From: Clostridia bacterium
GTDB lineage: Bacteria; Bacillota; Clostridia; TANB77; CAG-508
Assembly: GCA_022796725.1 (NCBI GenBank)
Contig: JAAWJE010000009.1
Coordinates: 1-57,175 of the forward strand
DNA: 57,175 nt
Direction: 5' to 3'
Made by a program: the position numbers and the translations under genes. Below the pieces are notes generated by a model. It did not search any database. It saw only the letters and a program-made list of their open reading frames with translations, and had not been told where the DNA came from. Shown here piece by piece: positions 2,040 to 38,221 of the stretch; within the stretch, counting starts at the first letter, position 1; every line of letters begins with the position of its first letter.

Positions 2040-2750
2040 CTATTCAATAATTTTGAAATCATAACCACGTGTAAAACGCATGGTTTGAACTTGCCCTAAA
2101 AGGGCTTATAACATTGCTAGCGCCTTAAGACGCTGGCTTTCACTTCGTTCAAGCCTTGATGTACTGACTACTTTAGCAAACCTTTAAAAGGGTTATTACT
2201 TTCTCTTTTAGTTAGTTTATCTTCTAGTACATCTTCTTTTTCTTGTTCTCTTATATATTTTCCAATTGTTGCTTCATTAATTCCTACTGTACTTACATAA
2301 TAGCCTGTCGCCCAGAAATTGCTATTTCCAAATTTATATCTCAAATTTCCATGCTCCTTAAATATCATCATTGAACTCTTTCCTTTCAAATATCCCATAA
2401 AACTTGATATATTTTGTTTTGGTGGTATTGATAATAGTAAATGTACGTGATCTGCCATCATATGTCCTTCTATTATTTCTACACCTTTCCATTTACATAA
2501 GTCTATTATATATCCTTGAATATCTCTTCTTAATTTATTGTATATAATTTTCCTTCTATACTTTGGTATGAATACTATATGATACTTGAATACCCATTTA
2601 GTGTGTGATAAACTATTTGCCATAAGGCATCTCTCCTTTCTATTTTATAGCTTGAACAACTTATATTATAGCATATGGAGAGATACCTTGCTTTAAGCCT
2701 TTAATCGCACCAGCATAGCTGGCAGTTTTTGTTTCGTTTCACTTCACTAA
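2040..2750 (-). mobile_element. IS200-type insertion sequence (IS200/IS605 family, tnpA only); boundaries approximate
   Basis: A single Y1-transposase gene flanked by subterminal hairpins. Downstream end: gccctaaaagggc, agcgccttaagacgct (2119-2134), ggctt..aagcc (2135-2155). Upstream end: ccagcatagctgg (2710-2722). Both flanks share gctggc...tttcacttc in the same orientation. Total size is about 0.7 kb, as expected for IS200. Confidence 0.6.
2168..2623 (-). CDS. tnpA: IS200/IS605-family Y1 transposase TnpA
   Basis: 151 aa. HTKWVFKYHIVFIPKYRR, HUH motif in ADHVHLLLSIPP, catalytic-Tyr region FWATGYYVSTVG. Confidence 0.9.
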   Translation of the reverse strand: MANSLSHTKWVFKYHIVFIPKYRRKIIYNKLRRDIQGYIIDLCKWKGVEIIEGHMMADHVHLLLSIPPKQNISSFMGYLKGKSSMMIFKEHGNLRYKFGNSNFWATGYYVSTVGINEATIGKYIREQEKEDVLEDKLTKRESNNPFKGLLK

Positions 2751-6186: not shown

Positions 6187-6477
6187 TTATCTTTTATAAA
6201 AATCCTCTATTACATCTTCTGATATTACTGGTGTTACTTTAGTTTTTGTAAATATTTCTAGTATACTATTTACTTCATATTCATTATTACTTATATCTTC
6301 TAATTTCTTATTTTCAATAATTTCTCTATCTTCCTTTAATTCTGTCTTTACTATCTCTATTCCATAACTTCTTCTATTTTCTTTAAATATTTTATAATAT
6401 TCTAAATTTATCATTTGTATATTACTATCTATCAATTCCTTTGTATCATATTTGACTTTTGAAAATATTTGTTTCAT
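6187..6477 (-). CDS. hypothetical small acidic protein (resembles a clostridial DUF-type family, YGIE...V(T/S)P pattern)
   Basis: 96-aa ORF with host-like composition and no overlapping competitor. Function unknown. Confidence 0.5.
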   Translation of the reverse strand: MKQIFSKVKYDTKELIDSNIQMINLEYYKIFKENRRSYGIEIVKTELKEDREIIENKKLEDISNNEYEVNSILEIFTKTKVTPVISEDVIEDFYKR

Positions 6478-6636: not shown

Positions 6637-6930
6637 CTAAGCATCTTCTCTTACGTCTTTTTTCATAAAAATAATATACAGTATTAAATGAAATATTATT
6701 ACTGCAATGCCTGCCACAATGCCTCCTGTCCTAAAACAGTTTACTGCCCAGACTATAATCCAAATAATATAGAAAGGCAATAACCAAGTATTGTGTGCAA
6801 AAAAGCAAAACACAAATGCAAAAAGCGTTAAGAGAATAGTTCCTTTCATGCTGTTATGTGCAACAAGCCCAAAAAGCATCATCAACCGCTGACAGATTAT
6901 CCAAGATATCATCCAAATCAAATATGACAT
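6637..6930 (-). CDS. small three-helix membrane protein, paralog 2 of a tandem pair
   Basis: 97 aa. N-terminus MSYLIWMISWIICQRLMMLFG matches the MKYLIWMVCWVISQRIMMAMG of the neighbour. GGAGG-type RBS (aagggaggtgacatc ATG). G+C visibly higher than the surroundings. Confidence 0.65.
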   Translation of the reverse strand: MSYLIWMISWIICQRLMMLFGLVAHNSMKGTILLTLFAFVFCFFAHNTWLLPFYIIWIIVWAVNCFRTGGIVAGIAVIIFHLILYIIFMKKDVREDA

Positions 6931-7044: not shown

Positions 7045-7335
7045 TCATGCTCCTGTTTTCTTTTTGAGTGCTATTCTGATAAGCCACGCATTCATAGCTC
7101 CTCCAACGAGGCCATTTATTACATTGCCATTCTCAAAGCATAAAATCACCCACAATACAATCATTATTGAAGCTATGGAAATTATAATTTTACTCTCTCT
7201 CACAAGCAATACAATGATTGTAGATATAACTGCCGAAAATATGCTTGAAGTTAATGGCTTTTCATAAATGACACCCATAGCCATCATAATCCGCTGACTT
7301 ATCACCCAGCACACCATCCAAATCAAATACTTCAT
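7045..7335 (-). CDS. small three-helix membrane protein, paralog 1 of a tandem pair
   Basis: 96 aa with the conserved N-terminal motif shared with 6637-6930. Its own terminator hairpin aacaggagcat/atgctcctgtt (about 7024-7057) overlaps the stop codon. Confidence 0.65.
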   Translation of the reverse strand: MKYLIWMVCWVISQRIMMAMGVIYEKPLTSSIFSAVISTIIVLLVRESKIIISIASIMIVLWVILCFENGNVINGLVGGAMNAWLIRIALKKKTGA

Positions 7336-7419: not shown

Positions 7420-8544
7420 TCACAATTTTTTATTAAGTTCAACTTGTACTATAAATTCTCTTTTATTTCTTTTTATAGTAAGCTTTACTATATCTCCTGG
7501 TTTTTTAGTATAAATGTACTCTCTAAGTTCTGTCATTTTTGTAATATTTATATCATCGATTTTTACTATAATATCTCCAGCTTTTATACTAGATTTTTTT
7601 AAATTACTGCTCTCATTTATATCAGCAACATAAATACCATCTTCAAAATCTATAACATCTTTTAAATATGGTATTACTTCTTTATCATATCCATATATTC
7701 CTAAATATGCCTCATTAAATTTCCCCTCAGTTTCAAGCTTTTCTATTATTGTTTTCACCATATTTATTGGTATTGCAAATCCTATACCATCTGCATCAGT
7801 TACCTTTACTGAAGTTATTCCTATAACTTCACCAAGTTCATTTATTAATGCTCCTCCACTATTCCCTTCATTTATTGTAGCATCTGTTTGTATTAAACTT
7901 TCCATATATGAATATTTACCATTTTCATCTTTAACTTTTAAAGTCCTTTTTGTACCGCTTATTATTCCTGATGTAACTGTTTTTTCAAATTCAAAACCAA
8001 CTGGATTACCAATTGCATATACATTTTGTCCTATACTAATATCATCTGAATTGCCTAATTTTATAGGACTTAAATTTTCTACTCCTATTTTTACTATTGC
8101 TAAATCAATTTCATTATCTGACCATACAACATTTCCTTTATATTCTACACCTGTATCTAATGTAACATAACAATTGTTAAATTTGTCTCCAACTAAATGT
8201 TGATTTGTAAGAATATATCCCTTTTTAGATACTATTATTCCTGTTCCTATTCCTAAACTTTCTACACCTTTTTTTAAAAATATACTTGTTCCAGTATCTT
8301 TTAATTTGGAAATTCCAACTATACTTTTCATTGCTTCATTTATTACATTCTCACTATTACTATTTTTTATAATTTTACTTTCTATTTCTTTTGCAAGTTT
8401 AGTTCCATATTCTTTTTTTTCATAAGTATATATCTGTCCGTCTAAATAAACAACATAAGCTAATATTCCAAAAAAAATACTCAAACAAATTATTATTATC
8501 TGAATAAAAACATTATTTGCTTTCTTTTTATCTATTCTAAACAT
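7420..8544 (-). CDS. htrA: HtrA/DegP-family (S1C) serine protease with N-terminal membrane anchor and C-terminal PDZ domain
   Basis: 374 aa. TM helix near the N-terminus, His region ILTNQHLV, Asp region DLAIVKI, catalytic Ser in GNSGGALIN, PDZ-like tail (GDIIVKIDD). Confidence 0.85.
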   Translation of the reverse strand: MFRIDKKKANNVFIQIIIICLSIFFGILAYVVYLDGQIYTYEKKEYGTKLAKEIESKIIKNSNSENVINEAMKSIVGISKLKDTGTSIFLKKGVESLGIGTGIIVSKKGYILTNQHLVGDKFNNCYVTLDTGVEYKGNVVWSDNEIDLAIVKIGVENLSPIKLGNSDDISIGQNVYAIGNPVGFEFEKTVTSGIISGTKRTLKVKDENGKYSYMESLIQTDATINEGNSGGALINELGEVIGITSVKVTDADGIGFAIPINMVKTIIEKLETEGKFNEAYLGIYGYDKEVIPYLKDVIDFEDGIYVADINESSNLKKSSIKAGDIIVKIDDINITKMTELREYIYTKKPGDIVKLTIKRNKREFIVQVELNKKL

Positions 8545-8759
8545 TTAATCACCACTCTATTTATACATATCTCTTTATTTTTATTATTCATTTTTTTATA
8601 GAATTTATTTACTTTATTCTAATAAAATAAAAATATTTTTTATTTTTATTTTAATATTACTTTTTAATTGCTTTTTCGTTATATTTCTGTAACATTCAAC
8701 AATATTTGTCTAAACTTTTATATAATGTTTTTACTATAAAAAAAATGGAGATTTTAAAT

Positions 8760-11700
8760 ATGGATGTTGGTAAAAAAATTTATAATTTAACAGGTGTTCA
8801 AGAAGCTATTTTTGCTTCTGAACAATTTTGCAAAGGAACTTCTATTAATAATATTACAGGAATGTTTTATATTAATAATAAAATAGATATTACTGCTCTT
8901 TCTGAAGCACTAAAATTATTTATAAAAAATAATTCTGGTAGCAGAATACAAATAGGATTATCAGACACTAATGAACCTTTTCAATATTTTGAAAATTATA
9001 CTGACTTAACTTTTGAAACAGTATATCCATCAAATTTAGAAGAGGCTTCTTCTCTTACTCAAAAAATAACTGATACTCCTATATTTGATTTTAATTCAAG
9101 ATTATATGATTTTAAACTTTTTAAATTGCCTGATTCTACTGGAGGATTTATTTCGACCTTTCATCATTTAATTTCTGATGCTTGGTCTATGCAATTATTT
9201 ATAGATATAATAGTCTCAAACTATTATAAATTAACTCACAATGGTAATGAATTAGTTTCTATGGAAACTTATGAATATAAGGATTATATAGATTCTTATA
9301 CAGATTATTTAAAAAGTTCAAAATACATAAAAGATAAGGAATTCTGGAAGGAAAATTTCTCTTCTTCATCTACACCAATTACATTACATTCTGATACTAA
9401 CCAAAATGTAGAAGCTGTTGCAGATTATTCTGCTGAGAGATTAAATTTTACATTAAACAGTAATATCATGAAAAAATTATCACCTTATCTACAAGAAAAT
9501 AAAATTTCTGCTTATGCTTTTTTCTTAGCAGTACATTCAATATATTTTAGTAGAATAAATAATTCACAGGATTTTGTAATTGGGACTCCTGTACTTAATC
9601 GTACAAATGTAAAAGAAAAAAATACTACTGGATTATTCATAAATACAATACCATTTTCAGTAAATATAAATAATAAAGAGAATTTTTCTGATTTTGTTAG
9701 GAGAATATCTGTTGATACTATATCATATTTTAGACATCAAAAATATCCATACCAGAATATTTTAAGTGATATAAGAAATGATAAAGATAATTCTTCTATT
9801 AGTAATTTGTATAATGTTTTATACTCTTATCAAAATGCTAGAGCTTATAACTCTTTTGGGGATATTAATTATAAAGCTATTTGGTTTCAACCTAAATATA
9901 TTATTAATGATATACAAATTCATATTCATGATATTTTAAACAGTGGGAACTTATCTATTTCTTATGATTATAGAACATCAAAATTTTCTGAAAATTTAAT
10001 TAAATCTACTTACAATAGAATTATTGCTATAGTTAATCAAATTTTAGATGCAAAAGAAAACATTAAAATTTCTGATATAGAAATAGTAACACCTACTGAA
10101 AAGAAAAAATTACTATATACTTTTAATAATACACATAAAGAATATGATAAAAATAAAACAATTCAAAGTTTAATAGAAGAACAATGTGATAGATTTCCAA
10201 ATAAAATAGCATTAATATGTAACGATAAAAAAATTAGTTATAGAGAACTTAATTCTAGAGCAAACCAAATTGCTCATTATTTAAGGAGTTTAGGTGTAAA
10301 GCCTAATACATTTGTTGGACTTCTTTGTGATAGGTCTCTAGAGATGATTATTGGACAACTTGGTATATTAAAATCTGGAGCTGCATACTTACCAATTGAC
10401 CCTGATTATCCTAGTGATAGAATTTCTTATATGCTAGAAAATAGCGATGCTAAGATTGTACTTTCTAAAGAAAATTTATTTAATTTAATTTCTAGTAATT
10501 CAAATGAGATTACTAAATTAGATATATCATTAGAAAATAGTATAATTTATAAATCTTCATCATGTAAGAATCCAAAAAATATAAATTCATCAGAAGATTT
10601 AGCCTATATTATATATACTTCTGGTTCAACTGGTAATCCAAAAGGAGTACAGTTAAAACATATTAATATAAATAATTTTATTCTAGGAACAACAGATAAA
10701 ATTAAATTTTCAGATGATAAAACTATCGTTTCTGTAACTACTATATGTTTTGATATATTTGTTCTTGAAAGTCTACTTCCACTACAAAATGGATTGACTA
10801 TTGTAATAGCAAATGAAAAAGAACAAAACAACATAAATTTCTTAAATGATTTATGTTTAAAATATAATGTGAATATTATTCAAACAACTCCTTCTCGATT
10901 AAATAAATTAACTAACGATATTGACTATTGTAGATATATAAATAATTTAACAGATATCTTAGTTGGTGGAGAACCTTTACCAATAACACTTCTTGAGCAT
11001 TTAAGAAAGTTAACTAAAAAAGCTAAAATATATAATATGTATGGACCTACTGAAACAGCTGTATGGTCTACAATTAAAGACGTATCTAATTATAAAAGCT
11101 CTACTATCTCAATAGGAACTCCTATTGCTAATACTTCTATTTATGTATTAGATGAAAAAACAAATAAATTATTACCACCAGGAAACCCTGGTATTCTCTA
11201 TATTGGTGGAGATGGCGTTTGCAAAGGATATCATAAAAGAGAAAATTTGAATAAAACATTGTTTATAAATAACCCTTATAATAATAACGAAATTATTTAC
11301 AATACAAATGATTTAGTAAAACAATTACCAAATGGTGAATTAATTCACTTGGGAAGAGCTGATTTTCAAGTAAAAATAAGAGGATATAGAATAGAACTTG
11401 GAGAAATAGAAAATAAGATATTATCTTATGATAATATAAACGAAACTGTTTTAGTACCTCATGAATCTAAATTTTTAATATGTTATTATTCTTCTAGTAA
11501 AGATATTATTATATCTGAATTAATATCTTATCTTTTAGAATATTTACCAAATTATATGATACCAGCTTATTTTATAAAATTACCTAACCTTCCTCTTACA
11601 CCTAATGGAAAAATAGATAGAAAAAAATTGCCAAAACCTAATATGGATTCTGAACAACTTTTAGAAATTGCAAGTACTAATACAGAAAAAATATTAGAAG

Positions 11701-13115
11701 AAAATATATTAAAAATATTAAATAATGGAATGGAACATATTGATATAAATACTCCATTTATATCTTTAGGTTTAGACTCTCTTAGTATTGTTCAGCTACA
11801 ATCAATGTTACTTGGTTATCAATTAAATATTACAACACAAACTTTTTATAAATTTCCTACTGTAAAGAAACTTGCAAAATACATTGATTCTAGCAAAAAT
11901 ATAAATGAAAATGTATCATTTACACTTGATCCAATGTTTTTACATAATAAAGATGAAAAAGCTATTATTTCTAATGATAGTAATGATTTAGGAAATGTTT
12001 TTTTAACAGGTGCAAATGGTTTTATTGGTATTCATGTTTTAAAAGAATTATTAGATACCACAAATTGTAACATATATTGTTTAGTTAGAGGAGCTAACTT
12101 AGAAATTTCTACTAATAGATTATCAGATAATTTTAAATATTATTTTAATTTATCTATTAATCCATATTTGAATAAACGTGTATTCATTATTAATGGTGAC
12201 ATTACAAATGAAAATTTAGTAATGTCAAATGAAATAAATGATATGTTAGGAAATAATATTAATACTGTGATTCATACTGCTGCTGTTGTAAAACATTATG
12301 GAAATTTTGATGAATTCAAAGAAATAAATATAAATGGAACGAAAAATATTGCTAAATTTGCTTTTAAAAATCACATTCGTTTTATACATATATCATCAAT
12401 TAGTATTTCTGGTAATTACCTTTTAAAACAAGATAATCACAATGTTGAGTTTTCTGAAAATGATTTTTATATTGGTCAGAATTATACTGAAAATGTATAT
12501 GTTAATAGTAAACTTGAAGCTGAAAATGTGATATATTCTTATATGAAAAAAGGATTACAAGGAAAAGTACTTCGTATTGGAATAGTAGCTGGTAGATATT
12601 CTGATGGACTATTTCAAAAAAACATGGACTCAAATGCTTTTTATAGTAGAATAAAATCAGTAACAAATTTAAAGGTAATTTCTGAAGATATGATTAATCA
12701 AAAAATAGAATTTACACCTATTGATGAGTGTGCTAAAGCAATAGTTTTACTTTCAAAAACAAAACAATATGATAATAAAATTTTCCATTTATATAATCAT
12801 AATTTAGTATCTATAAATAATGTTATAAAAACATTAAAGAAATTAAATATTAATGTAGAAGTTCTCTCAAGTGAAAGTTTTAAAGAAAAAGTATTAGAAG
12901 CTACAAAAGCTATTAATAATGCTGTTTCAGCAATTGTTAATGATTTTGATTATACAAATTTATCTTTAAATTATAATTTCACTGTTAATATAAAATCTGA
13001 ATATAGTATAAAAATATTACATGATTTAGGCTTTAGTTGGAGTAAATTAAATAATGATTATCTATATAGAATATTTAATTATATGATAACTACTGGATTT
13101 ATTTCTAAAGATTAG
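8760..13115 (+). CDS. single-module non-ribosomal peptide synthetase, domain order C-A-T-R (terminal thioester reductase)
   Basis: C domain HHLISDAWS (9162-9182). A domain cores LAYIIYTSGSTGNPKGV, NMYGPTE, GELIHLGRADFQVKIRGYRIELGEIE, PNGKIDRKKL. PCP LGLDSLS. R domain LTGANGFIGIHV (NAD(P) fold) and YVNSK. The ORF is open from 8706 (TTG). ATG 8760 was chosen because GGAG lies 9 nt upstream; ATG 8745 is also possible. Confidence 0.9.
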   Translation: MDVGKKIYNLTGVQEAIFASEQFCKGTSINNITGMFYINNKIDITALSEALKLFIKNNSGSRIQIGLSDTNEPFQYFENYTDLTFETVYPSNLEEASSLTQKITDTPIFDFNSRLYDFKLFKLPDSTGGFISTFHHLISDAWSMQLFIDIIVSNYYKLTHNGNELVSMETYEYKDYIDSYTDYLKSSKYIKDKEFWKENFSSSSTPITLHSDTNQNVEAVADYSAERLNFTLNSNIMKKLSPYLQENKISAYAFFLAVHSIYFSRINNSQDFVIGTPVLNRTNVKEKNTTGLFINTIPFSVNINNKENFSDFVRRISVDTISYFRHQKYPYQNILSDIRNDKDNSSISNLYNVLYSYQNARAYNSFGDINYKAIWFQPKYIINDIQIHIHDILNSGNLSISYDYRTSKFSENLIKSTYNRIIAIVNQILDAKENIKISDIEIVTPTEKKKLLYTFNNTHKEYDKNKTIQSLIEEQCDRFPNKIALICNDKKISYRELNSRANQIAHYLRSLGVKPNTFVGLLCDRSLEMIIGQLGILKSGAAYLPIDPDYPSDRISYMLENSDAKIVLSKENLFNLISSNSNEITKLDISLENSIIYKSSSCKNPKNINSSEDLAYIIYTSGSTGNPKGVQLKHININNFILGTTDKIKFSDDKTIVSVTTICFDIFVLESLLPLQNGLTIVIANEKEQNNINFLNDLCLKYNVNIIQTTPSRLNKLTNDIDYCRYINNLTDILVGGEPLPITLLEHLRKLTKKAKIYNMYGPTETAVWSTIKDVSNYKSSTISIGTPIANTSIYVLDEKTNKLLPPGNPGILYIGGDGVCKGYHKRENLNKTLFINNPYNNNEIIYNTNDLVKQLPNGELIHLGRADFQVKIRGYRIELGEIENKILSYDNINETVLVPHESKFLICYYSSSKDIIISELISYLLEYLPNYMIPAYFIKLPNLPLTPNGKIDRKKLPKPNMDSEQLLEIASTNTEKILEENILKILNNGMEHIDINTPFISLGLDSLSIVQLQSMLLGYQLNITTQTFYKFPTVKKLAKYIDSSKNINENVSFTLDPMFLHNKDEKAIISNDSNDLGNVFLTGANGFIGIHVLKELLDTTNCNIYCLVRGANLEISTNRLSDNFKYYFNLSINPYLNKRVFIINGDITNENLVMSNEINDMLGNNINTVIHTAAVVKHYGNFDEFKEININGTKNIAKFAFKNHIRFIHISSISISGNYLLKQDNHNVEFSENDFYIGQNYTENVYVNSKLEAENVIYSYMKKGLQGKVLRIGIVAGRYSDGLFQKNMDSNAFYSRIKSVTNLKVISEDMINQKIEFTPIDECAKAIVLLSKTKQYDNKIFHLYNHNLVSINNVIKTLKKLNINVEVLSSESFKEKVLEATKAINNAVSAIVNDFDYTNLSLNYNFTVNIKSEYSIKILHDLGFSWSKLNNDYLYRIFNYMITTGFISKD

Positions 13116-13160
13116 TATAAAATAAATATAACAATAAAAAAGTTAAAGGAAGATTATAAT

Positions 13161-15209
13161 ATGAAAAACTTAAAAAAAGCACCAAAGGAAAAAAAGAAAA
13201 TACACTTTTTTTCCTTACCTAGTGCAAAAATATCTATTATATATTATGCGATTTCAACAATATCAATAATTGCTATATCACTCGTTATACCATTAATTCT
13301 TAATTATCCACCAGATTCTATTAATACACCTTTTGATATTCAAATGTCTGGAATTGCTTATGTATGGCAATTTACATTAATAGATATTTTAGCATTATTT
13401 GCAATTTATTTTTTTATGAGATTTTTATTTAAACCAATAGATAATTGGTTTATTCATAAAGATAATCCTAAATATTCTAGTCAAAAAAATATTGATATAA
13501 TTAGAAAAAAGTGTATTAATTTACCTTATATTGTCTTTATAGTAGAACTTATTGTTCCTGGTATTGTGTCTTTAATTATCCTCACTTTAACAGGAAGTCA
13601 TGAATCTACAATGATCATAAAGCTATCTGTTATAATAGTTTCATTTTCCTGTCTATTTGCAGTATCTTCATATATGTTTTCTAAAAATATATTTGCAAAA
13701 TTACTAGCAGAAACTTATAAAGATAATTCAAATATAGGACTTAGAATTAGCTTAAATATAAAACTACTAATGCAAATACTTCCAATTTGCATAATTGGAT
13801 TGTTAGGTATGGGACTTATTGGTTATTCTAAATCAATCAAATCAGCTGAAGACACATGGTTCACAGTATATAATAATGAATTAAATAATGTTTTTGATAC
13901 AAATGAGATTTATACTTATGAAAGGATAAGCAATTTATTACAAAAAGTTAATTTATATCATGATAAAGATTCTGTATCAACTTTTATTTTATCTGAAGAT
14001 GGTAAAGTTGATACTATATCTGGAAAAAAGCCATCAAACTTCGTAATCGAATATACTTTGCAACTTTCTGAAAAAAACAATAATAAAACCTATGATAGTT
14101 ATGCTGTAGATACTCAAGGTGCTACAATAAAAGTACATACTAAATCAAAAAGTTATTATGTATGTATTTTATATGATACTAATGTTAAGGAAAGTTTAAA
14201 ATATATTACTTATACTTTTATAATATTACTTATTATTATAACTGCTATTTTAATAACTATTATTAATTCAATATCAAAAGATATTTCAGCTGTTTCTGAT
14301 AGATTAAGTCATATATCAAATAATGAAGAAGTTGATAAGTTTACTACTATTCCAGTTATCTCAAATGATGAAATTGGAGATTTAAGTAAATCTTATAATA
14401 GTATTCAGAAAATGAATAAAGAAAATCTTCAAAAAATAAAAAATAGTCAAGACTTGCTTATTGAACATGAAAGACTTGCTTCACTAGGTCAAATGATAGG
14501 TGGAATAGCTCACAATTTAAAGACTCCTATAATGTCAGTATCTGGAGCTTCTGAAGGACTTTCTGATTTAATAAAAGAATTAGATATGTCTATTGGAAAT
14601 AAAAATGTTACAGAAGAAGATTTTCATGATATTGCTTCTGATATGAATGAATGGATTAATAAAATAAGAACTCATACTTCTTATATGTCAGATGTTATAA
14701 CTGCTGTAAAAGGACAAGCAATTGTGTTTTCAGAAGAACAAGTTTATCCATTTAACTCAAAAGAATTATTTAAACAAGTAGAAATATTAATGAAACACGA
14801 ATTAAAAAATTCTATAACTAGATTAAATATTAAGGATTATACAACCGAAGACGATTTAATTTATGGAAATATTAATAGTTTAGTACAAATACTAAATAAT
14901 ATGATTTCTAATTCTATACAAGCATATTCATTAATAAAGCATGATAAAGAAACAACTATTAATTTAACTTCTAAAATAGAAAAAAATAAGATTATAATTA
15001 ATATTCAAGATTTTGGACCAGGTCTTCCTGATAATGTTAAAGAAAAATTATTTAAAGAAATGATTACTACAAAAGGAAAAGAAGGTACTGGACTTGGATT
15101 ATTTATGTCATATTCAAACATAAAAGCACATTTTCATGGTGAAATTACTTTTGAAACATCTTCTAAAGGAACTACTTTTAATATTATTTTACCTATTCAC
15201 AAATCATAG
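13161..15209 (+). CDS. membrane sensor histidine kinase (multi-TM N-terminus, extracytoplasmic domain, HAMP, DHp, HATPase_c)
   Basis: 682 aa. HAMP-like SNDEIGDLSKSYN, H-box LASLGQMIGGIAHNLKTPI, N-box LNNMISNSIQA, G-boxes IQDFGPGL and GTGLGLF. Starts 45 nt after the NRPS stop. Confidence 0.85.
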   Translation: MKNLKKAPKEKKKIHFFSLPSAKISIIYYAISTISIIAISLVIPLILNYPPDSINTPFDIQMSGIAYVWQFTLIDILALFAIYFFMRFLFKPIDNWFIHKDNPKYSSQKNIDIIRKKCINLPYIVFIVELIVPGIVSLIILTLTGSHESTMIIKLSVIIVSFSCLFAVSSYMFSKNIFAKLLAETYKDNSNIGLRISLNIKLLMQILPICIIGLLGMGLIGYSKSIKSAEDTWFTVYNNELNNVFDTNEIYTYERISNLLQKVNLYHDKDSVSTFILSEDGKVDTISGKKPSNFVIEYTLQLSEKNNNKTYDSYAVDTQGATIKVHTKSKSYYVCILYDTNVKESLKYITYTFIILLIIITAILITIINSISKDISAVSDRLSHISNNEEVDKFTTIPVISNDEIGDLSKSYNSIQKMNKENLQKIKNSQDLLIEHERLASLGQMIGGIAHNLKTPIMSVSGASEGLSDLIKELDMSIGNKNVTEEDFHDIASDMNEWINKIRTHTSYMSDVITAVKGQAIVFSEEQVYPFNSKELFKQVEILMKHELKNSITRLNIKDYTTEDDLIYGNINSLVQILNNMISNSIQAYSLIKHDKETTINLTSKIEKNKIIINIQDFGPGLPDNVKEKLFKEMITTKGKEGTGLGLFMSYSNIKAHFHGEITFETSSKGTTFNIILPIHKS

Positions 15210-15255
15210 TTTTTATGTTTATAATAGACTATATTAATGAAATGGAGTTGATATT

Positions 15256-16323
15256 ATGAGAATTAATATTAATAAAACAATAAGAACTGACTCAGATCCA
15301 AATAACACATATAAAATAATAGCCGTTGATGATGAAATGGGAATAATAGATTCTCTTTCTGTATATCTTAGTAGAGTTGGATATAAATTAGTAGGTGTAA
15401 CTGACCCAGAGGAAGCAATTGAAAGAGTAAAAAATGAACATTTTGATTTAATGCTTTTAGACTTTATTATGACTCCAATTCATGGTGATAAGGTTGTAGA
15501 AGAAATAAGAAAGTTTAATAAAGAATTATATATATTATTACTAACTGGACATAAGGAATTAGCTCCTCCTCTTGAAATAATAAAAAAATTGGATATTCAA
15601 GGGTATTGCGAAAAAAGTGATAAATTTGATCAATTGCTATTATTAATTGAATCTGGTATAAAGTCAATAAAACAAATGAATTTAATTAAATCTATAAATA
15701 AAGAATTAGAAGATTCTAAAGAATTGCTAGAAAAAGCGTATTTAGAAACAATAGAAACTCTAAGATATACTGTTGAAGCAAAAGATTTTTATACAAGAGG
15801 TCATTCTGATAGAGTATCTGAATATTCTGTATTAATAGGAAGTAAAATGAACTTACCAGATGAAGAAATAAATAAGTTGCGTATAGGTGGATTATTCCAT
15901 GATATAGGAAAAATTGGAATTCCTGACTCAATATTATTAAAGACTGATAAATTAACAAATGAAGAATATTCAGAAATAAAAAACCACCCTTCTATTGGAG
16001 CTCATATATTATCTAACGCTACATTATTTAAAGAATTGATCCCAATTGTTAAACATCATCATGAAAGATATGATGGGAAAGGATATCCAGCAAATTTGGA
16101 AGGAGATAATATACCTCTTCTTGCGAGAATTACTAGCATAGCAGATACTTTTGATGCTATGGTATCTAGACGTTCTTATCGTGATGCTTTATCTTTAGAA
16201 TATACAAAAGAAGAATTAAAGAAATGCAGTGGAACTCAATTAGATCCTAATATTGTTCCTATATTCTTAGACATTATTGAAAATGAATATAATAAAATAG
16301 AAGAAATACAAGCTAAATATTAA
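15256..16323 (+). CDS. response regulator with receiver domain fused to an HD-GYP domain (RpfG-like c-di-GMP phosphodiesterase)
   Basis: 355 aa. REC: IIAVDDE...DLMLLDFIM...LLLTGH. HD-GYP: RGHSDRV, FHDIGKIGIPD, HHERYDGKGYP. GGAG RBS. Starts 46 nt after the kinase. Confidence 0.85.
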   Translation: MRININKTIRTDSDPNNTYKIIAVDDEMGIIDSLSVYLSRVGYKLVGVTDPEEAIERVKNEHFDLMLLDFIMTPIHGDKVVEEIRKFNKELYILLLTGHKELAPPLEIIKKLDIQGYCEKSDKFDQLLLLIESGIKSIKQMNLIKSINKELEDSKELLEKAYLETIETLRYTVEAKDFYTRGHSDRVSEYSVLIGSKMNLPDEEINKLRIGGLFHDIGKIGIPDSILLKTDKLTNEEYSEIKNHPSIGAHILSNATLFKELIPIVKHHHERYDGKGYPANLEGDNIPLLARITSIADTFDAMVSRRSYRDALSLEYTKEELKKCSGTQLDPNIVPIFLDIIENEYNKIEEIQAKY

Positions 16324-16333
16324 ACTTAAAAGT

Positions 16334-16369
16334 AAAATCCCAATTGAATTTATTTTCAATTGGGATTTT
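16334..16369. terminator. bidirectional rho-independent terminator between convergent genes
   Basis: Perfect 15-bp stem aaaatcccaattgaa / ttcaattgggatttt with A/T runs on both sides. Confidence 0.8.
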
Positions 16370-16385
16370 ATAATTCACATATTTT

Positions 16386-18302
16386 TTATCTATCCATTCC
16401 ATCATCTACTTGTTGTTGATTTTCTAATAAATTCTCTTGTAAGCTTTCACTTGTAAGCCATCCTAAAATATGACCTTTTTCATCAACTATATGGTATGAA
16501 AACTTAGCATCAGGATATTTTTCTTTTAATTCTAATAAAGTAACATCATCAGTAGTTACTGAAATATATCCATCGTCTGTTGCAATTCCAATTTGAGAAA
16601 TTATCTTTGCTTCTCCTGCATGATTTTCAAAACTTCCACAGTTTCCTGTTCCTTCTGGTGTTTCAAAATATACTCCTTTATCAATAGTCATTCTGCTTCC
16701 AACTCTTATTGATTCTAAATAAGTTTTTGAAGCATCTTTTTCATCTACTTCTTCTTTTTTATCAATTGATTTCTTTTCTTTATTAGTATCTGTATTTTCT
16801 TTTACATATGATGTAAAAGTATTTTTTTCTTCAAATTTATCTTCTATTATATCTTTTTTATCATCAAATACTTTTTTTACATCAGCAACTGCTTGGAATG
16901 ATACAACAGATGTTTTATTATCATCTGATTCTCTAAAATTAATCTTCTCATCAATATCATATGCTTGTATTTGTGTTTCTGATGTATATTCTTCATCTAA
17001 TGGTATTACAGAAAAATATTTTGGTACAATTGTTGCTACAGTTGCTACACCTGCTAATGCTATTATACCTGCTACTCCTCCTAATGTAGCCTTTAAAAGT
17101 TTCTTTTTATCTGAACATACTTTATTTCTTATAGAGTCCGCCTTATCTTTCAATTTTCTTGTATATCTTTTTACTACACTTTCTTTTTTAGGAGTTTTAT
17201 CTTCTTTTTCATGAGATTCAACTTCTTTTTCAGGAATTTCAATTACGAATGTTTTTACAATTGCACTTGGTCTATTTTCATCTGCGCCAAGTATTGTACC
17301 ATTTCTCATCTCAATAGCATCTAATTTTCTTCTCTTTTTGTTTGCTAAATTTACTGTTTGTGATTTCTTTCCTTTTTTTGTTGAAGTACCACTTATATCT
17401 ATAATGTCAATTCCTTCTCTTTCTCTTTGAGCTTTATATATTCTATCTTTTCTTTCATTATCTTCTTGTATTTTTTGTTTATATCTATTTTTTAATTTTC
17501 TGCTTTCTCTAAAAGCTCTTTTAGAAGCTTGTATGCTTTGTCTTCTACTAATAGCCTTTTTAGGTTTAGAAACAACTGGCTTATCACTATTTTTACTAGT
17601 TTCAGTATCATCTACAACTTCTTCTGCCTCTCTGTAAGAAATTGATTTACTTTTTTTATCTTGTTGAGTTTCAAAATGTTCTTTTTTATAATCACCAAAA
17701 ATCTCACTGCTAAATCCTTCAGCAAATATATATTGTCTATCATATAAATCTACTTTTTCATCTATCTTAATTTCTGGTTCTTCTTGTTTACTTTCATCTT
17801 CGACAAAAACTTCTTGCTTAGGTTCTATATCTTTTTCTTCATTTTCATCTGTATCAATATTAGTTCTTTTTTGTTTTCTTGTTGATATTGTCATTTTTAA
17901 TCTATCTATTAAAGATACTTTATCATCTATACCTGTCACGCCTGTTATTCCAGCCTTTTCTAGAAGTTCTTTTCTTGTTTGTTTTTCTCTTTTTATATAT
18001 TCTGCTCTTGATTCTCCTGATTGTTTTGGAATTTCTTTAACAATTACATTTAAATATTTAGTCAAATAATTAGTTCCCATCTCATAATCATATTCCTGAA
18101 GACATTCATATAAGTCTAAATTTACTTTAGATATTAATTCTTTTGAAAGATCATATTCTTCCTTAATCTCAGATCTTAAAATTTCAGCTTTCCCAGGATA
18201 ATTATTAATTTTTATTTTTCTAACTTCATTTCCATCATCAAATATGTATTCTCCATCTAGTAAATTAATTTTTATTTTTTTAATATTAATTTCCAAAATC
18301 AA
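16386..18302 (-). CDS. hypothetical single-pass membrane protein: Lys/Glu-rich cytoplasmic part, globular C-terminal domain
   Basis: 638 aa with one clear TM helix (LGGVAGIIALAGVATVATIV). The N-terminal 400 aa are highly charged. No recognisable catalytic motif. Confidence 0.6.
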   Translation of the reverse strand: MILEINIKKIKINLLDGEYIFDDGNEVRKIKINNYPGKAEILRSEIKEEYDLSKELISKVNLDLYECLQEYDYEMGTNYLTKYLNVIVKEIPKQSGESRAEYIKREKQTRKELLEKAGITGVTGIDDKVSLIDRLKMTISTRKQKRTNIDTDENEEKDIEPKQEVFVEDESKQEEPEIKIDEKVDLYDRQYIFAEGFSSEIFGDYKKEHFETQQDKKSKSISYREAEEVVDDTETSKNSDKPVVSKPKKAISRRQSIQASKRAFRESRKLKNRYKQKIQEDNERKDRIYKAQREREGIDIIDISGTSTKKGKKSQTVNLANKKRRKLDAIEMRNGTILGADENRPSAIVKTFVIEIPEKEVESHEKEDKTPKKESVVKRYTRKLKDKADSIRNKVCSDKKKLLKATLGGVAGIIALAGVATVATIVPKYFSVIPLDEEYTSETQIQAYDIDEKINFRESDDNKTSVVSFQAVADVKKVFDDKKDIIEDKFEEKNTFTSYVKENTDTNKEKKSIDKKEEVDEKDASKTYLESIRVGSRMTIDKGVYFETPEGTGNCGSFENHAGEAKIISQIGIATDDGYISVTTDDVTLLELKEKYPDAKFSYHIVDEKGHILGWLTSESLQENLLENQQQVDDGMDR

Positions 18303-25014: not shown

Positions 25015-25178
25015 TATTTTACTCCTTATACTTAACAAAATAATATTAACATATATTATTTTTATATGCAACATATCTATTATCTAAGATTAAAAGATTT
25101 TTTTGTCTTCTTGAGCTAGACAATATTGTTTTTTTTATGTATAATAGAAACAAGTTTTATGATAGGAGTGATTATTTT

Positions 25179-25745
25179 ATGTTAGGAAGTTTAATTGCAA
25201 AAGTAAGAGAAGATAAAAATATGTCAAAAACAGAACTTGCAAAATTGACAGGTATTAATGTTGGACATTTAACTCATATAGAAAAAGGTGAGCGTAATCC
25301 TAGTCAGAAAGCTTTAAAGTCAATATGTGATTCATTAAGTATTCCATTTGAACCATTATATTATACTTATGAAAAAGAACTTACAGACAATCAAAAACAA
25401 TTTAATCTTATAAATAATATACCTTATGATAAAATTCCACTTGTAACAAATATAGAAGCTTTAATAGATTGTCCTTCTAAAATTCCTTATGCATCACTTG
25501 CATTTAAAATACCAGATGATACAATGAAAGGAAGTCTTCCACGAGGAACATTAGTATATTTAGAGCTAAATTCTATTCCTGAACATAAGGAATTTGGATT
25601 ATTTAGTTATAATGGAAATATAATAGTTAGAAGAATGATTTATAGAAAAAATAAAATAGTTCTAAAATCAGATAACTTATTATCAAAGGACTATTCAGTA
25701 TCTAAAGAAGATGATTTCTACATAATTGGAAAAATTTATGAATAA
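25179..25745 (+). CDS. XRE-family HTH regulator with a C-terminal S24/LexA-like domain lacking the Ser/Lys dyad
   Basis: HTH MSKTELAKLTGINVGHLTHIEKGERNPS. The C-terminal IPDDTMKGSLPRGTLVYL and IIVRRMIY align by eye with the GDSM and VKRL motifs of S24 peptidases. The start was moved to ATG 25179 (AGGAG upstream). Confidence 0.7.
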   Translation: MLGSLIAKVREDKNMSKTELAKLTGINVGHLTHIEKGERNPSQKALKSICDSLSIPFEPLYYTYEKELTDNQKQFNLINNIPYDKIPLVTNIEALIDCPSKIPYASLAFKIPDDTMKGSLPRGTLVYLELNSIPEHKEFGLFSYNGNIIVRRMIYRKNKIVLKSDNLLSKDYSVSKEDDFYIIGKIYE

Positions 25746-38127: not shown

Positions 38128-38221
38128 AAAAATCACCTTATTTATTTTTATGATTTGCTATATATTAATATTCGCAAATTTCTTTAATCTTATCACTATT
38201 TTATTTTTTTGTAAAATGTTA

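Follow-up and report, generated by a model that had tools for sequence, protein, structure and literature searches.

The 57,175-nt window, the whole stretch of DNA analysed here, which comes from an uncultured gut Clostridia bacterium, carries on its + strand a nonribosomal peptide synthetase (NRPS) of C-A-T-R architecture, followed by a sensor histidine kinase (HK) with six transmembrane (TM) helices and a REC–HD-GYP response regulator (RR). The three genes probably form a signalling cassette resembling Rpf/DSF: the cognate kinase would sense the NRPS product and would in turn control the hydrolysis of a cyclic dinucleotide. Judging from related genomes, the locus is a mosaic, in which the NRPS and the sensor half of the kinase vary together, while the transmitter half and the regulator follow the species tree.

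The features of the unit are collected in Table 1. The three open reading frames (8760-13115, 13161-15209, and 15256-16323, all on the + strand) are spaced by 45 and 46 nt, which reproduces the coordinates of an earlier sequence-only reading of this DNA, and each has a ribosome-binding-like site of its own, as that reading had held: GGAG before 8760, AGGAAG before 13161, and GGAG before 15256. A mechanical ORF list puts the NRPS start at TTG 8706; ATG 8760 is the preferred candidate because GGAG lies 8 nt upstream of it and because alignments with homologues begin at residue 1-8 when the protein is read from this ATG. Both gaps are unstructured when folded (-2 kcal/mol, z +1.25, and -10.6 kcal/mol, z -0.33), in line with the hairpin-free junctions described earlier, and the unit is closed by the single strong terminator that had also been noticed, whose stem comprises 17 bp in the fold (16 pairs as counted by the scan) and is equalled by none of 200 shuffles. 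Another stable hairpin (13185-13216, -16.4 kcal/mol, z -6.7) is found within kinase codons 9-19. The promoter-like site at the kinase stop codon may act as an internal promoter for the regulator gene; such sigma-70-like matches are no commoner than chance in DNA of 25% GC (73 found versus 81.8 expected). The operon promoter presumably sits in the intergenic region shared with the divergent HtrA-like protease gene (7420-8544, - strand), for which an Rfam scan, permissive setting included, matched no family. Pfam detected no PPTase, acyl-activating enzyme, exporter, or GGDEF domain in the ~40 longest non-nested ORFs of the window, which agrees with the minimal cluster proposed earlier, and no known c-di-GMP effector was found in the window.

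Table 1. Features of the NRPS-kinase-regulator unit, in window coordinates
Feature	Position	Strand	Basis
Divergent intergenic region, HtrA-like protease gene to NRPS	8545..8759	.	Sequence
Single-module NRPS, 1451 aa, C-A-T-R	8760..13115	+	Pfam; NCBIfam full-length alignment to MxcG-type C-A-T-R
Condensation domain, residues 6-452, motif FHHLISDAW	8775..10115	+	Pfam 2.7e-72
Adenylation domain, pocket code D-I-L-Q-L-G-M-V-W-K	10176..11639	+	Code extracted from sequence
Carrier (PCP) domain, attachment serine in LGLDSL	11706..11885	+	Pfam PP-binding; translation
Terminal thioester reductase domain, TGANGFIG Rossmann motif, YVNSK	11997..13103	+	Pfam NAD_binding_4 4.6e-43
HK sensor half, residues 1 to ~400, 6 TM helices	13161..14360	+	Sensor alignment, AlphaFold models
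Extracytoplasmic PDC/PAS-like domain of HK, residues 225-342	13833-14186	+	AlphaFold models; Foldseek
HK transmitter half: DHp with H-box AHNLKTP, and HATPase_c	14418..15209	+	Pfam
Promoter-like site TTCACA-18-TATAAT, 11/12 sigma-70-like match	15196..15225	+	Overlaps kinase stop codon
Response regulator, REC residues 21-130 and HD-GYP residues 172-333	15256..16323	+	Pfam Response_reg, HD_5/HD
Bidirectional intrinsic-terminator-like hairpin	16333..16370	.	-22.2 kcal/mol, z -6.3; closes unit

Condensation, AMP-binding, PP-binding, and NAD_binding_4 domains are assigned by Pfam to the NRPS, whose homologue family spans 1400-1480 aa, and the motifs FHHLISDAW, LGLDSL, TGANGFIG, YVNSK, and HHHERYDGKGYP are intact in the translations of the three genes; the earlier identification of C, A, PCP, and terminal reductase domains is thus confirmed. 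The reductase domain also matches TIGR01746 Thioester-redct with 174 bits. Among PDB sequences, the C domain is closest to the LCL domain of TycC (1e-22), with starter C domains scoring lower; the search did not discriminate between subtypes, and acylation by this domain is accordingly a tentative prediction. In the PDB, the adenylation pocket region is matched best by DhbF module 1 (5u89, DILQLGLIWK) and AB3403 (4zxh/4zxi, DILQLGVVWK), both of which are glycine domains (PMC10510592). By its code, the pocket is of the glycine type, and we therefore infer an N-acyl-glycinal or N-acylethanolamine as the product. Because the enzyme has a single module and a Gly-type pocket, the peptide aldehyde suggested by the sequence-only reading would probably be an N-acyl-glycine-derived aldehyde or alcohol instead. 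A chemical precedent for the proposed product is the Gly-T-R module of LgrD (linear gramicidin synthetase), whose C-terminal glycinal undergoes reduction to ethanolamine. MxcG (myxochelin) is a C-A-T-R enzyme like the window NRPS, with a full-length NCBIfam score of 477 bits that falls well short of the equivalog cutoff (2300). MxcG and LgrD differ from it in substrate, context, and role, being parts of siderophore and antibiotic assembly lines rather than of signalling cassettes.

In the kinase, Pfam recognises HisKA and HATPase_c, and the sensor half, whose alignment shows invariant residues, contains a conserved outer loop, LNYPPxSINTxFD, and a HAMP-like linker. Foldseek matches to the modelled outer domain are weak (best E 8.5e-3, TM 0.5) and nearly all to extracellular PAS/Cache sensors, weakly suggesting a PDC-like ligand-binding domain. 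The transmitter is 54-78% identical to the window copy in all loci, including those with another sensor type. The regulator is REC plus HD-GYP, as first read; it scores 200 bits against the NCBIfam model 'response regulator c-di-GMP phosphodiesterase', which is below the cutoff. Its best PDB matches are V-cGAP3 (5z7c) and PmGH (4mcw), with which the HD, HHE..D, and GYP residues align, and the cGAMP-specific enzyme is matched slightly better than the c-di-GMP one, suggesting that the substrate could be c-di-GMP or 3'3'-cGAMP. Pfam finds no DNA-binding domain in the regulator, and the kinase-regulator pair therefore cannot control NRPS transcription in the conventional way.

The association of the three genes is widely conserved. 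When linkage was defined as an HK gene start less than 400 nt past the NRPS stop, a kinase followed the NRPS in 61 of 70 genome loci, with an HD-GYP gene downstream in 50 of the 61. The HD-GYP gene is missing downstream in the other ~11, and CAG:465-type loci have a TetR regulator in its place; a c-di-GMP output would therefore not be obligatory. Between NRPS and HK, the median gap is 16 nt; the gap does not exceed 30 nt in 54 of 63 cases and is zero or negative in nine, whereas the HK-RR gap in relatives is loose (median 145 nt). Gaps of 0-30 nt, together with touching or overlapping genes, indicate that NRPS and kinase belong to one transcription/translation unit. Co-transcription of all three genes, which the earlier reading had taken as apparent, is putative, given the looser HK-RR junction and the promoter-like site at that point in the window. 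In the reverse direction, using only the HK sensor domain as the query recovered 57 usable loci from metagenomes, 49 of which have an NRPS directly upstream; the case in which homologous NRPS genes never adjoin this two-component pair, which would have undone the earlier proposal, is contradicted by both searches. Each carrier among 160 loci is a MAG or a metagenome contig; none is a cultured strain.

The link also recurs in distant lineages. In Syntrophomonadaceae (GC 0.45-0.48), the NRPS is followed by a one-component TM-GGDEF-HD-GYP protein; a Bacillota MAG (GC 0.48) has the order NRPS, HK, and REC-DUF3369-HD-GYP according to Pfam, as does a bioreactor contig (GC 0.50) according to tblastn only, and in Acetivibrionales a dimodular NRPS precedes a HisKA_7TM kinase and REC-DUF3369-HD-GYP. 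These loci keep the link without HtrA or Tex, whereas the whole HtrA-to-Tex neighbourhood is syntenic in the gut lineage. This synteny, together with a transmitter and regulator that follow the species tree, is what would be expected if an NRPS had been inserted beside a housekeeping two-component system without any functional link, adjacency being vertical local synteny. That explanation is highly improbable and already largely refuted by the outgroup loci, by the reverse search, and by the tight or overlapping junctions. The two-way linkage and the outgroup recurrence instead support the earlier idea of a genetic wiring between an NRPS-made small molecule and c-di-GMP turnover.

Sensor type and synthetase type change together. 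Single-module NRPSs, including that of the GC 0.48 outgroup (HMM E 1e-153), pair with a 6TM-PDC-HAMP sensor, and dimodular NRPSs pair with a HisKA_7TM-PAS sensor; the exact chromosomal site of the window NRPS is taken, in sister genomes, by dimodular relatives of ~2475 aa (C-A-T-C-A-T-R). With Tex as the species marker, NRPS distances correlate with those of the HK sensor at r=0.96, versus 0.34 for the HK transmitter, 0.33 for the RR, and 0.34 for Tex, while the transmitter and RR correlate with Tex at r=0.92 and r=0.80, respectively. The NRPS-sensor correlation is retained in a partial Mantel test given Tex (r=0.96, p=5e-4). Between genomes with Tex ~90% identical, identity is 32-63% for the NRPS and 18-48% for HK residues 1-390, and 70-96% from about HK residue 400 through most of the RR and Tex; all of the pairs examined show the step from ~30% to ~90% at HK residues 391-420, where sensor and transmitter meet. 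On the other side, HtrA is 66-96% identical in close genomes, compared with the 32-63% of the NRPS, and the region at 8545..8759 is taken as the left edge of the variable cassette.

Co-diversification of the NRPS with the sensor half only argues against simple co-expression and favours the branch of the sequence-only reading in which the product is a signal sensed by the kinase. This joint change, observed over more than 100 related genomes, is fairly likely to reflect a signal exchanged between cells and a receptor matched to it. The NRPS and the sensor lie next to each other, and part of the history that they share could stem from their transfer as one contiguous block, with the right-hand recombination breakpoint simply falling in conserved transmitter sequence. 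Adjacent segments have a common recombination history, and the co-variation might thus be hitch-hiking if the kinase senses an unrelated host or environmental cue and co-expression times the metabolite with a drop in c-di-GMP, which was the second option of the sequence-only reading; the metabolite could then be, for instance, an aldehyde directed at the host as a protease inhibitor, such as related dimodular NRPSs of gut Clostridia are reported to make. This seems distinctly unlikely, since the boundary is sharp with no decay with distance, NRPSs with one and with two modules go with different sensor architectures even where the lineages are unrelated and synteny is absent, and Syntrophomonadaceae again place a different sensor-enzyme fusion directly after the NRPS.

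Somewhat less unlikely, yet still doubtful, is cell-autonomous monitoring, in which the kinase would sense the product, or aldehyde-caused membrane or protein damage, and adjust c-di-GMP as feedback or self-protection. The linkage and co-variation require only that the sensor recognise the product, the tight NRPS-HK coupling would ensure stoichiometric co-expression, and no exporter is encoded. Against this, the locus keeps an intact HK+RR pair but no NRPS in L094 and L101, which is odd for a purely internal sensor and would be expected of eavesdropping receivers; the pherotype-like divergence among close relatives is the pattern of a social signal and receptor, and the conserved sensor residues map to the loop and domain predicted to be extracytoplasmic.

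The closest functional parallel to the proposed intercellular cassette is RpfF/RpfC/RpfG of Xanthomonas, which links a lipid signal with an HD-GYP regulator and in which, as here, the synthase gene is clustered with a multi-TM kinase and a c-di-GMP-hydrolysing REC-HD-GYP protein (PMC6337780). The earlier impression that the arrangement is not a described one holds insofar as no description of such a signalling cassette was found in the searchable literature, but it is tempered by this precedent, which that reading did not name. The synthase is a C-A-T-R NRPS here and a crotonase in Rpf; the kinase is classical HisKA/HATPase_c with a PDC-like outer domain here and a hybrid with REC and HPt in Rpf; the present hosts, unlike those of Rpf, are Gram-positive gut anaerobes, and a mosaic pherotype-like locus is not a described feature of rpf. 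Both systems occur in two architectures, the one-component variants being Burkholderia RpfF plus RpfR (PAS-GGDEF-EAL) and the TM-GGDEF-HD-GYP form of Syntrophomonadaceae.

In the pherotype quorum-sensing loci agrBDCA of Staphylococcus and comQXPA of Bacillus, a hypervariable block of signal genes and kinase sensor half stands beside a conserved transmitter and regulator. ComQXPA loci are polymorphic synthase-plus-receptor loci (PMC4408185). By analogy, the present mosaic matches the agr/comQXP pherotype pattern, close genomes here carrying different blocks as close strains do there, although the cassette diversity is seen between species-level MAGs and not yet within species. Agr and ComQXPA use ribosomal peptide signals and DNA-binding regulators, whereas a non-ribosomal acyl-amino aldehyde or alcohol and an enzyme regulator are predicted here.

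As for the chemistry, a gut Clostridia NRPS family reportedly makes dipeptide aldehydes and pyrazinones (said to be the work of Guo et al. in Cell, 2017), and ruminopeptin is said to have been described by Schneider et al. in 2017. Reviews state that related dimodular gut Clostridia NRPSs make dipeptide aldehydes that inhibit host proteases; these enzymes are reductase-terminated with the same aldehyde-release chemistry as the window enzyme, which differs in having a single module and a Gly pocket. The dimodular relatives found here may belong to the published family. No kinase and HD-GYP pair attached to these aldehyde NRPSs was found reported in the searchable literature. PvfC of the Pseudomonas virulence factor (Pvf) system is an NRPS without an N-terminal C domain. 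Like the proposed cassette, Pvf relies on an NRPS-derived diffusible autoinducer, made by a small NRPS and controlling group behaviour (PMC10194917). Unlike the cassette, Pvf is not known to have a linked dedicated kinase or HD-GYP gene.

Collectively, the C-A(Gly)-T-R NRPS would load glycine, which the N-terminal C domain would acylate with a donor from primary metabolism not encoded at the locus, and the reductase would release the thioester reductively as an N-acyl-glycinal, or as an N-acylethanolamine upon a second reduction. The kinase would then recognise this lipophilic product through its sensor half, which comprises the six TM helices and the extracytoplasmic PDC-like domain, and would control phosphorylation of the REC-HD-GYP regulator, with cyclic dinucleotide hydrolysis, most likely of c-di-GMP, as its sole output. 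The synthetase and the sensor half would thus constitute an exchangeable, pherotype-like specificity cassette, attached to a conserved core of transmitter and regulator.

The NRPS, sensor histidine kinase (HK) and REC-HD-GYP regulator genes form a real cassette of putative signal synthase, sensor kinase and HD-GYP enzyme with pherotype-like modularity. In the window, which has a GC content of ~25%, each of the three co-directional ORFs is preceded by a GGAG- or AGGA-type site 8-9 nt 5' of its ATG, both short intergenic gaps fold no better than shuffled sequence and a terminator-like hairpin closes the unit, so that the ORFs and folds bear out what the sequence-only reading had described. The same reading had called the cluster minimal, and indeed no PPTase, acyl-activating enzyme or exporter is encoded in the scanned window ORFs, nor is a GGDEF protein. 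A search for a riboswitch or leader 5' of the NRPS gene found no Rfam family at gathering or permissive thresholds. Co-transcription of the regulator with the NRPS and the kinase is uncertain, because the kinase-regulator gap is looser in relatives (median 145 nt) and a promoter-like site lies in the window. Inside kinase codons 9-19, 24 nt past the start codon, there is a 12-bp A/U-rich hairpin (AAGGAAAAAAAG...CUUUUUUUCCUU), also called terminator-like on the minus strand by the scan, which might influence translation of the kinase or simply result from its Lys and Phe codons. The contigs of two public gut-type assemblies are identical to the window across the cassette locus, and the window kinase protein is also annotated on a Clostridia MAG.

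Coordinates of the cassette, its neighbours and variant loci (L handles denote homologous loci from genomes or metagenome contigs; all other positions refer to the window)
Feature	Position	Strand	Remark
NRPS ORF	8760-13115	+	1451 aa; single module
Kinase ORF	13161-15209	+	45-nt gap after NRPS
Regulator ORF	15256-16323	+	46-nt gap after kinase
Terminator-like hairpin	16333-16370		-22.2 kcal/mol, z -6.3 (fold vs shuffles)
Promoter-like site	15196-15225		11/12 match, not above chance in this DNA
Hairpin in kinase codons	13185-13216	+	-16.4 kcal/mol, z -6.7; 0/200 shuffles equal
IS200/Y1 transposase	2168-2623	-	mobile-element trace
Tandem ORFs	6187-6477, 6637-6930, 7045-7335	-	~96-97 aa each
HtrA/DegP-type serine protease	7420-8544	-	with PDZ
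ORF between regulator and Tex	16386-18302	-	638 aa
HTH + S24 peptidase repressor	25137-25745	+	LexA/CI-like; mobile-element trace
TraG/T4SS coupling protein	30963-32492	-	mobile-element trace
Mur ligase/D-Ala-D-Ala ligase fusion	35674-38136	-	820 aa
MucBP-repeat protein	38319-45476	-	2385 aa
TraG-like gene, T4SS pilin, TrbL/VirB6-like gene	53849-56796	+	mobile-element trace, right end of window
TM-GGDEF-HD-GYP proteins, Syntrophomonadaceae	L034:7444-9228, L035:14356-16167, L063:3598-5502		one-component, replacing two-component pair
Receiver-only candidates	L094:9998-13093, L101:2416-6929		intact window-type kinase + REC-HD-GYP, no NRPS
Clostridium sp. CAG:465 variant	L055/L056:14299-16752		TetR-family regulator, no HD-GYP
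Inverted REC-HD-GYP gene	L071:19304-20389		relative to NRPS + kinase

Several neighbouring genes deserve a brief description. The HtrA/DegP-type protease gene is divergent from the NRPS gene, with a common control region of 215 nt; the two genes are conserved neighbours in the gut lineage but not in the outgroups, and a link between the predicted aldehyde product and the protease is conceivable. The three tandem ORFs adjoining the protease gene upstream may be paralogues, and only the first matches Pfam (DUF6514). The 638-aa ORF matches nothing in Pfam or NCBIfam and, among the 80 genome loci searched by tblastn, only the identical contig; it looks like a lineage-specific insertion because the regulator and Tex, the species-marker gene on that side, nearly adjoin in the closest relatives L003 and L054 (spacing only ~80-170 nt). 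The MucBP-repeat protein, with 12 such mucin-binding repeats, is a candidate surface adhesin, adhesins being typical c-di-GMP-controlled outputs. The 820-aa fusion joins a MurF-like Mur ligase (Mur_ligase, Mur_ligase_M, Mur_ligase_C) to a complete D-Ala-D-Ala ligase (Dala_Dala_lig_N, Dala_Dala_lig_C). Traces of mobile elements are scattered over the window and include a second TraG-like gene at its right end.

The C, A, PCP and terminal reductase cores were all recovered in the NRPS as Pfam domains (Condensation, AMP-binding, PP-binding, and NAD_binding_4) and as catalytic motifs in the translation. The C domain (2.7e-72) carries its HHxxxD motif as FHHLISDAW, of which H135, H136, and D140 are invariant among 18 homologues; its PDB matches are all distant, with starter C domains no closer than LCL domains. 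The A domain (8.8e-89; TIGR01733 at 386.9 bits, above the cutoff of 317.4) has its core motifs and the pocket residues Asp235 and Lys517. The phosphopantetheine serine of the carrier domain is present in LGLDSL, and the R domain, an SDR-type thioester reductase (4.6e-43), shows the Rossmann motif TGANGFIG and Tyr-x3-Lys as YVNSK, its TIGR01746 score of 174 bits being below the curated cutoff of 213. LgrA (6mfy) was rejected as a special relative of the A domain, since its 607 bits arise from adding up two unremarkable A-domain matches (290 + 316), and a pocket-region search was then used instead of the whole A-domain PDB match. By GrsA numbering the pocket code is DILQLGMVWK, with Q at position 278 in agreement with the DhbF and AB3403 alignments, and the pocket segment has DhbF module 1 (DILQLGLIWK) and AB3403 (DILQLGVVWK) as its two top PDB matches. 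The former is a glycine module and the latter was crystallised with glycine (PMC10510592). Judged from this code, the window pocket is Gly-type. Other members of group 1 show DILQ[L/M]G[M/V][V/I]WK, and further cassette groups DITQ.GMVWK (group 2, e.g. L028) or DIFL.GLVYK (group 3, e.g. L057). The family consists of single-module proteins of 1400-1480 aa that are 36-66% identical, and is also related to dimodular enzymes of ~2475 aa that other genomes carry at this locus; in these, one Gly-type module is paired with either a variable module or another Gly-type module.

In the kinase, HisKA and HATPase_c (Pfam) occupy the C-terminal 260 residues, with the H-box AHNLKTP. An AlphaFold model built with 31 homologues shows six long TM helices, the last two of which (TM5 and TM6) flank a domain predicted with good confidence (residues 225-342, pLDDT ~90). 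Invariant sensor residues are concentrated in this domain and in the first outer loop (LNYPPxSINTxFD). With the full-length model, Foldseek returned nothing but kinase cores; with the domain-only model (pLDDT 83.7, pTM 0.78) it gave weak matches (best E 8.5e-3, TM 0.5), almost all of them to chemoreceptor or kinase sensor domains that are extracellular and of PAS, PDC or Cache type. These matches suggest, with low confidence, that the outer domain is PDC-like. The regulator was confirmed as REC plus HD-GYP by Pfam (Response_reg and HD_5/HD) and by HDIGK and HHHERYDGKGYP, both readable in the translation; it is an intact REC-HD-GYP protein without DNA-binding output. Its best PDB match is V-cGAP3 (5z7c, 1.4e-38), which is cGAMP-specific, followed by the c-di-GMP enzyme PmGH (4mcw, 6e-36), and its metal-binding and GYP residues all align to both. 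Because of this double alignment, the substrate could be either c-di-GMP or 3'3'-cGAMP; the GGDEF fusion in the one-component variant of Syntrophomonadaceae favours c-di-GMP.

The linkage of NRPS and kinase was examined from both ends. On the NRPS side, one genome per species was scanned, giving 80 loci with 10-kb flanks, all from MAGs or uncultured assemblies and mostly from human, rabbit, ruminant, chicken, and mouse gut. A kinase gene starts no more than 400 nt past the NRPS stop codon in 61 of the 70 loci with enough downstream sequence, at a median distance of 16 nt (IQR 6.5-21.5; zero or negative, with touching or overlapping genes, in 9 loci), and the HD-GYP gene is next in 50 of these 61, about a fifth being without it. 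On the sensor side, metagenome contigs were searched with an alignment of the N-terminal 430 residues of the kinase only. An NRPS gene ends within 400 nt in 49 of 57 matches having at least 1.5 kb upstream, and the regulator is present in 50 of 59 having at least 1.5 kb downstream. The adjacency predicted for relatives was thus found in both directions, and the NRPS-kinase linkage is obligate-looking. The exceptions include two receiver-only candidates, L094 and L101, in the second of which the HtrA-like gene is followed directly by the kinase. One complete relative genome has 1.8 Mb, the carriers being reduced-genome Clostridia.

The order HtrA-like protease, NRPS, kinase, regulator, Tex is syntenic throughout the gut lineage. 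An explanation of the adjacency by synteny alone conflicts with genes that touch or overlap and with outgroup loci, in which the association recurs without the HtrA and Tex flanks and at very different base composition. In Syntrophomonadaceae (GC 0.45-0.48), a C-A-T-R NRPS with the pocket code DIFQIGGVYK is followed directly by a ~600-aa protein consisting of a multi-TM N-terminus, GGDEF, and HD-GYP; no homology was detected between this N-terminus and either kinase sensor type. A Bacillota MAG (GC 0.48) has NRPS, kinase, and REC-DUF3369-HD-GYP genes in this order, as does a bioreactor contig (GC 0.50) by tblastn only, and an Acetivibrionales MAG has a dimodular NRPS, a HisKA_7TM kinase, and REC-DUF3369-HD-GYP. 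These outgroup loci indicate that such NRPSs have been joined repeatedly to cyclic-di-GMP-type enzymes via differing signalling architectures.

The sensor type tracks the synthetase type. The window-type sensor profile, built from 46 loci that all have a single-module NRPS, matches the kinase of the GC 0.48 outgroup at 1e-153 and that of GWE2 at 1e-132. The second profile (16 loci, HisKA_7TM + PAS) matches kinases beside dimodular NRPSs, including that of Acetivibrionales; of its 16 loci, 14 encode a dimodular NRPS, L066 encodes a trimodular one, and in L060 the NRPS frame is broken. Neither profile matches the sensor region of the other, and cross-matches occur only in the linker just before DHp. 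The second profile also matches the HisKA_7TM-PAS kinase of CAG:465, a locus with a single-module Gly-type NRPS and TetR downstream.

Beyond this correspondence, the segments of the locus form a mosaic whose breakpoint lies within the kinase gene. Compared with the window, the kinase transmitter is 54-78% identical in gut-lineage loci, even where the sensor is of the second type (52% in the outgroup L033), the regulator 66-83% (61-62% in the outgroups L033 and L047), and Tex 70-84%. The kinase sensor half falls by group to 58%, 38-46% or 28-34%, or is not alignable, and the NRPS to 65%, 45-56%, 42% or 36-39%. Pairwise distances over 35 loci (24 where Tex is also present) correlate strongly between NRPS and sensor (r = 0.96) and weakly between NRPS and transmitter (0.34, Spearman 0.15), regulator (0.33, Spearman 0.08), or Tex (0.34), whereas transmitter and regulator follow Tex (0.92 and 0.80, respectively). 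In partial Mantel tests given Tex, NRPS and sensor remain correlated (r = 0.96, p = 5e-4) and NRPS and transmitter do not (-0.07). The low rank correlations indicate that the two halves of the cassette differ in history and not merely in rate. The loci L028 and L081, for example, share 91% identity in Tex, 88% in the regulator, and 85% in the transmitter, against 30% in the sensor and 45% in the NRPS. Sliding identity in four close pairs is 32-63% over the whole NRPS and 18-48% over kinase residues 1-390, jumps to 70-96% from residues 391-420 and remains at that level over most of the regulator and Tex; HtrA, on the other side of the NRPS, has 66-96% in these pairs. The position of the jump implies that the exchangeable unit is the NRPS plus the kinase input, namely the TM helices and the outer domain together with the greater part of the HAMP-like linker. 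The co-variation might instead reflect hitch-hiking of adjacent DNA, with the kinase responding to an unrelated environmental cue, but this is hard to square with an identity boundary that is sharp and domain-exact and with the switch of sensor architecture in non-syntenic lineages.

Comparable polymorphism is known from the agrBDC region, where specificity groups are set on a conserved output. In comQXP, signal genes and the sensor half of the receptor define such groups (PMC4408185). The present cassette shares with agr/comQXPA-like loci the hypervariable signal gene and sensor half on a conserved transmitter and regulator, and close genomes likewise carry different cassettes; those loci, however, use a ribosomal peptide and a DNA-binding regulator in place of an NRPS and HD-GYP output. 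The closest functional analogue is RpfF/RpfC/RpfG of Xanthomonas, in which a multi-TM kinase senses a lipid signal and switches on a REC-HD-GYP c-di-GMP phosphodiesterase (PMC6337780). Both systems cluster synthase, sensor, and regulator genes, and an RpfG-type fusion of REC to HD-GYP, with intact HHE..D.GYP motif, is also found in the window. The cassette nevertheless lies outside the Rpf family, because the scanned window ORFs encode no RpfF-type crotonase and the window kinase is not a hybrid like RpfC (REC, HPt), having only HisKA and HATPase_c after a TM/PDC/HAMP input. Burkholderia RpfR is a one-component parallel to the TM-GGDEF-HD-GYP variant. The dipeptide-aldehyde NRPSs of gut Clostridia are dimodular, (C-)A-T-C-A-T-R, unlike the single-module window enzyme. 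Pvf provides a precedent for NRPS-made autoinducers (PMC10194917). No description of a kinase and HD-GYP protein attached to such an NRPS was found in the searchable literature, the gene maps of Guo et al. 2017 lying outside this scope.

The earlier proposal that an NRPS product is wired to c-di-GMP turnover is supported, and is sharpened by the two-way linkage and the NRPS-sensor co-variation. From the sequence comparisons, the NRPS product and the kinase are probably a cognate signal and receptor. In the mechanism that we propose, the C domain would N-acylate Gly-S-PCP, primary metabolism supplying the acyl donor, and the R domain would release an N-acyl-glycinal, which a second reduction may turn into an N-acylethanolamine; a chemical precedent for such reductive release is the Gly-T-R end of linear gramicidin synthetase. 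The lipophilic product would be the ligand of the cognate kinase, which would set the phosphorylation state of the regulator and hence cyclic-dinucleotide levels. Cell-autonomous sensing of the product by the kinase would fit the same NRPS-sensor co-variation, but neither the orphan receivers nor the pherotype-like diversity agrees with it. The orphan kinase-regulator pairs of L094 and L101 suit the use of an intercellular signal. We tentatively suggest a broader scheme, which is possible though rather less than probable, that uncultured gut Clostridia have a pherotype-diversified quorum sensing by NRPS acyl-amino aldehydes or alcohols, with matched kinases and one conserved REC-HD-GYP c-di-GMP switch, where single-module enzymes would make N-acyl-glycinal/N-acylethanolamine-like signals and dimodular ones acyl-dipeptide aldehydes or pyrazinones.

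Known Gram-positive quorum sensing employs ribosomal peptides and DNA-binding regulators, to which the cassette would add a non-ribosomal, lipid-like signal wired straight to a cyclic dinucleotide; to our knowledge, such direct wiring has so far been known mainly from DSF signalling in proteobacteria. The mosaic offers natural specificity experiments, in that several groups of cassettes share a single conserved core of signalling parts, and, since the carriers are uncultured, reconstitution in a heterologous host from sequence is a realistic route. The finding gives a testable function and a candidate receptor to a widespread, hitherto orphan NRPS family of the animal gut, which, as far as we know, has been interpreted until now via effects on host proteases. 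If the broader scheme is true, this 'peptide aldehyde' family would serve natively first of all for signalling between bacterial cells, and not for the inhibition of host proteases. The products predicted from glycine, N-acyl aminoacetaldehydes or N-acylethanolamines, are chemically near host lipid mediators, and endocannabinoid-like N-acylethanolamines would then be made by gut bacteria through an NRPS route.
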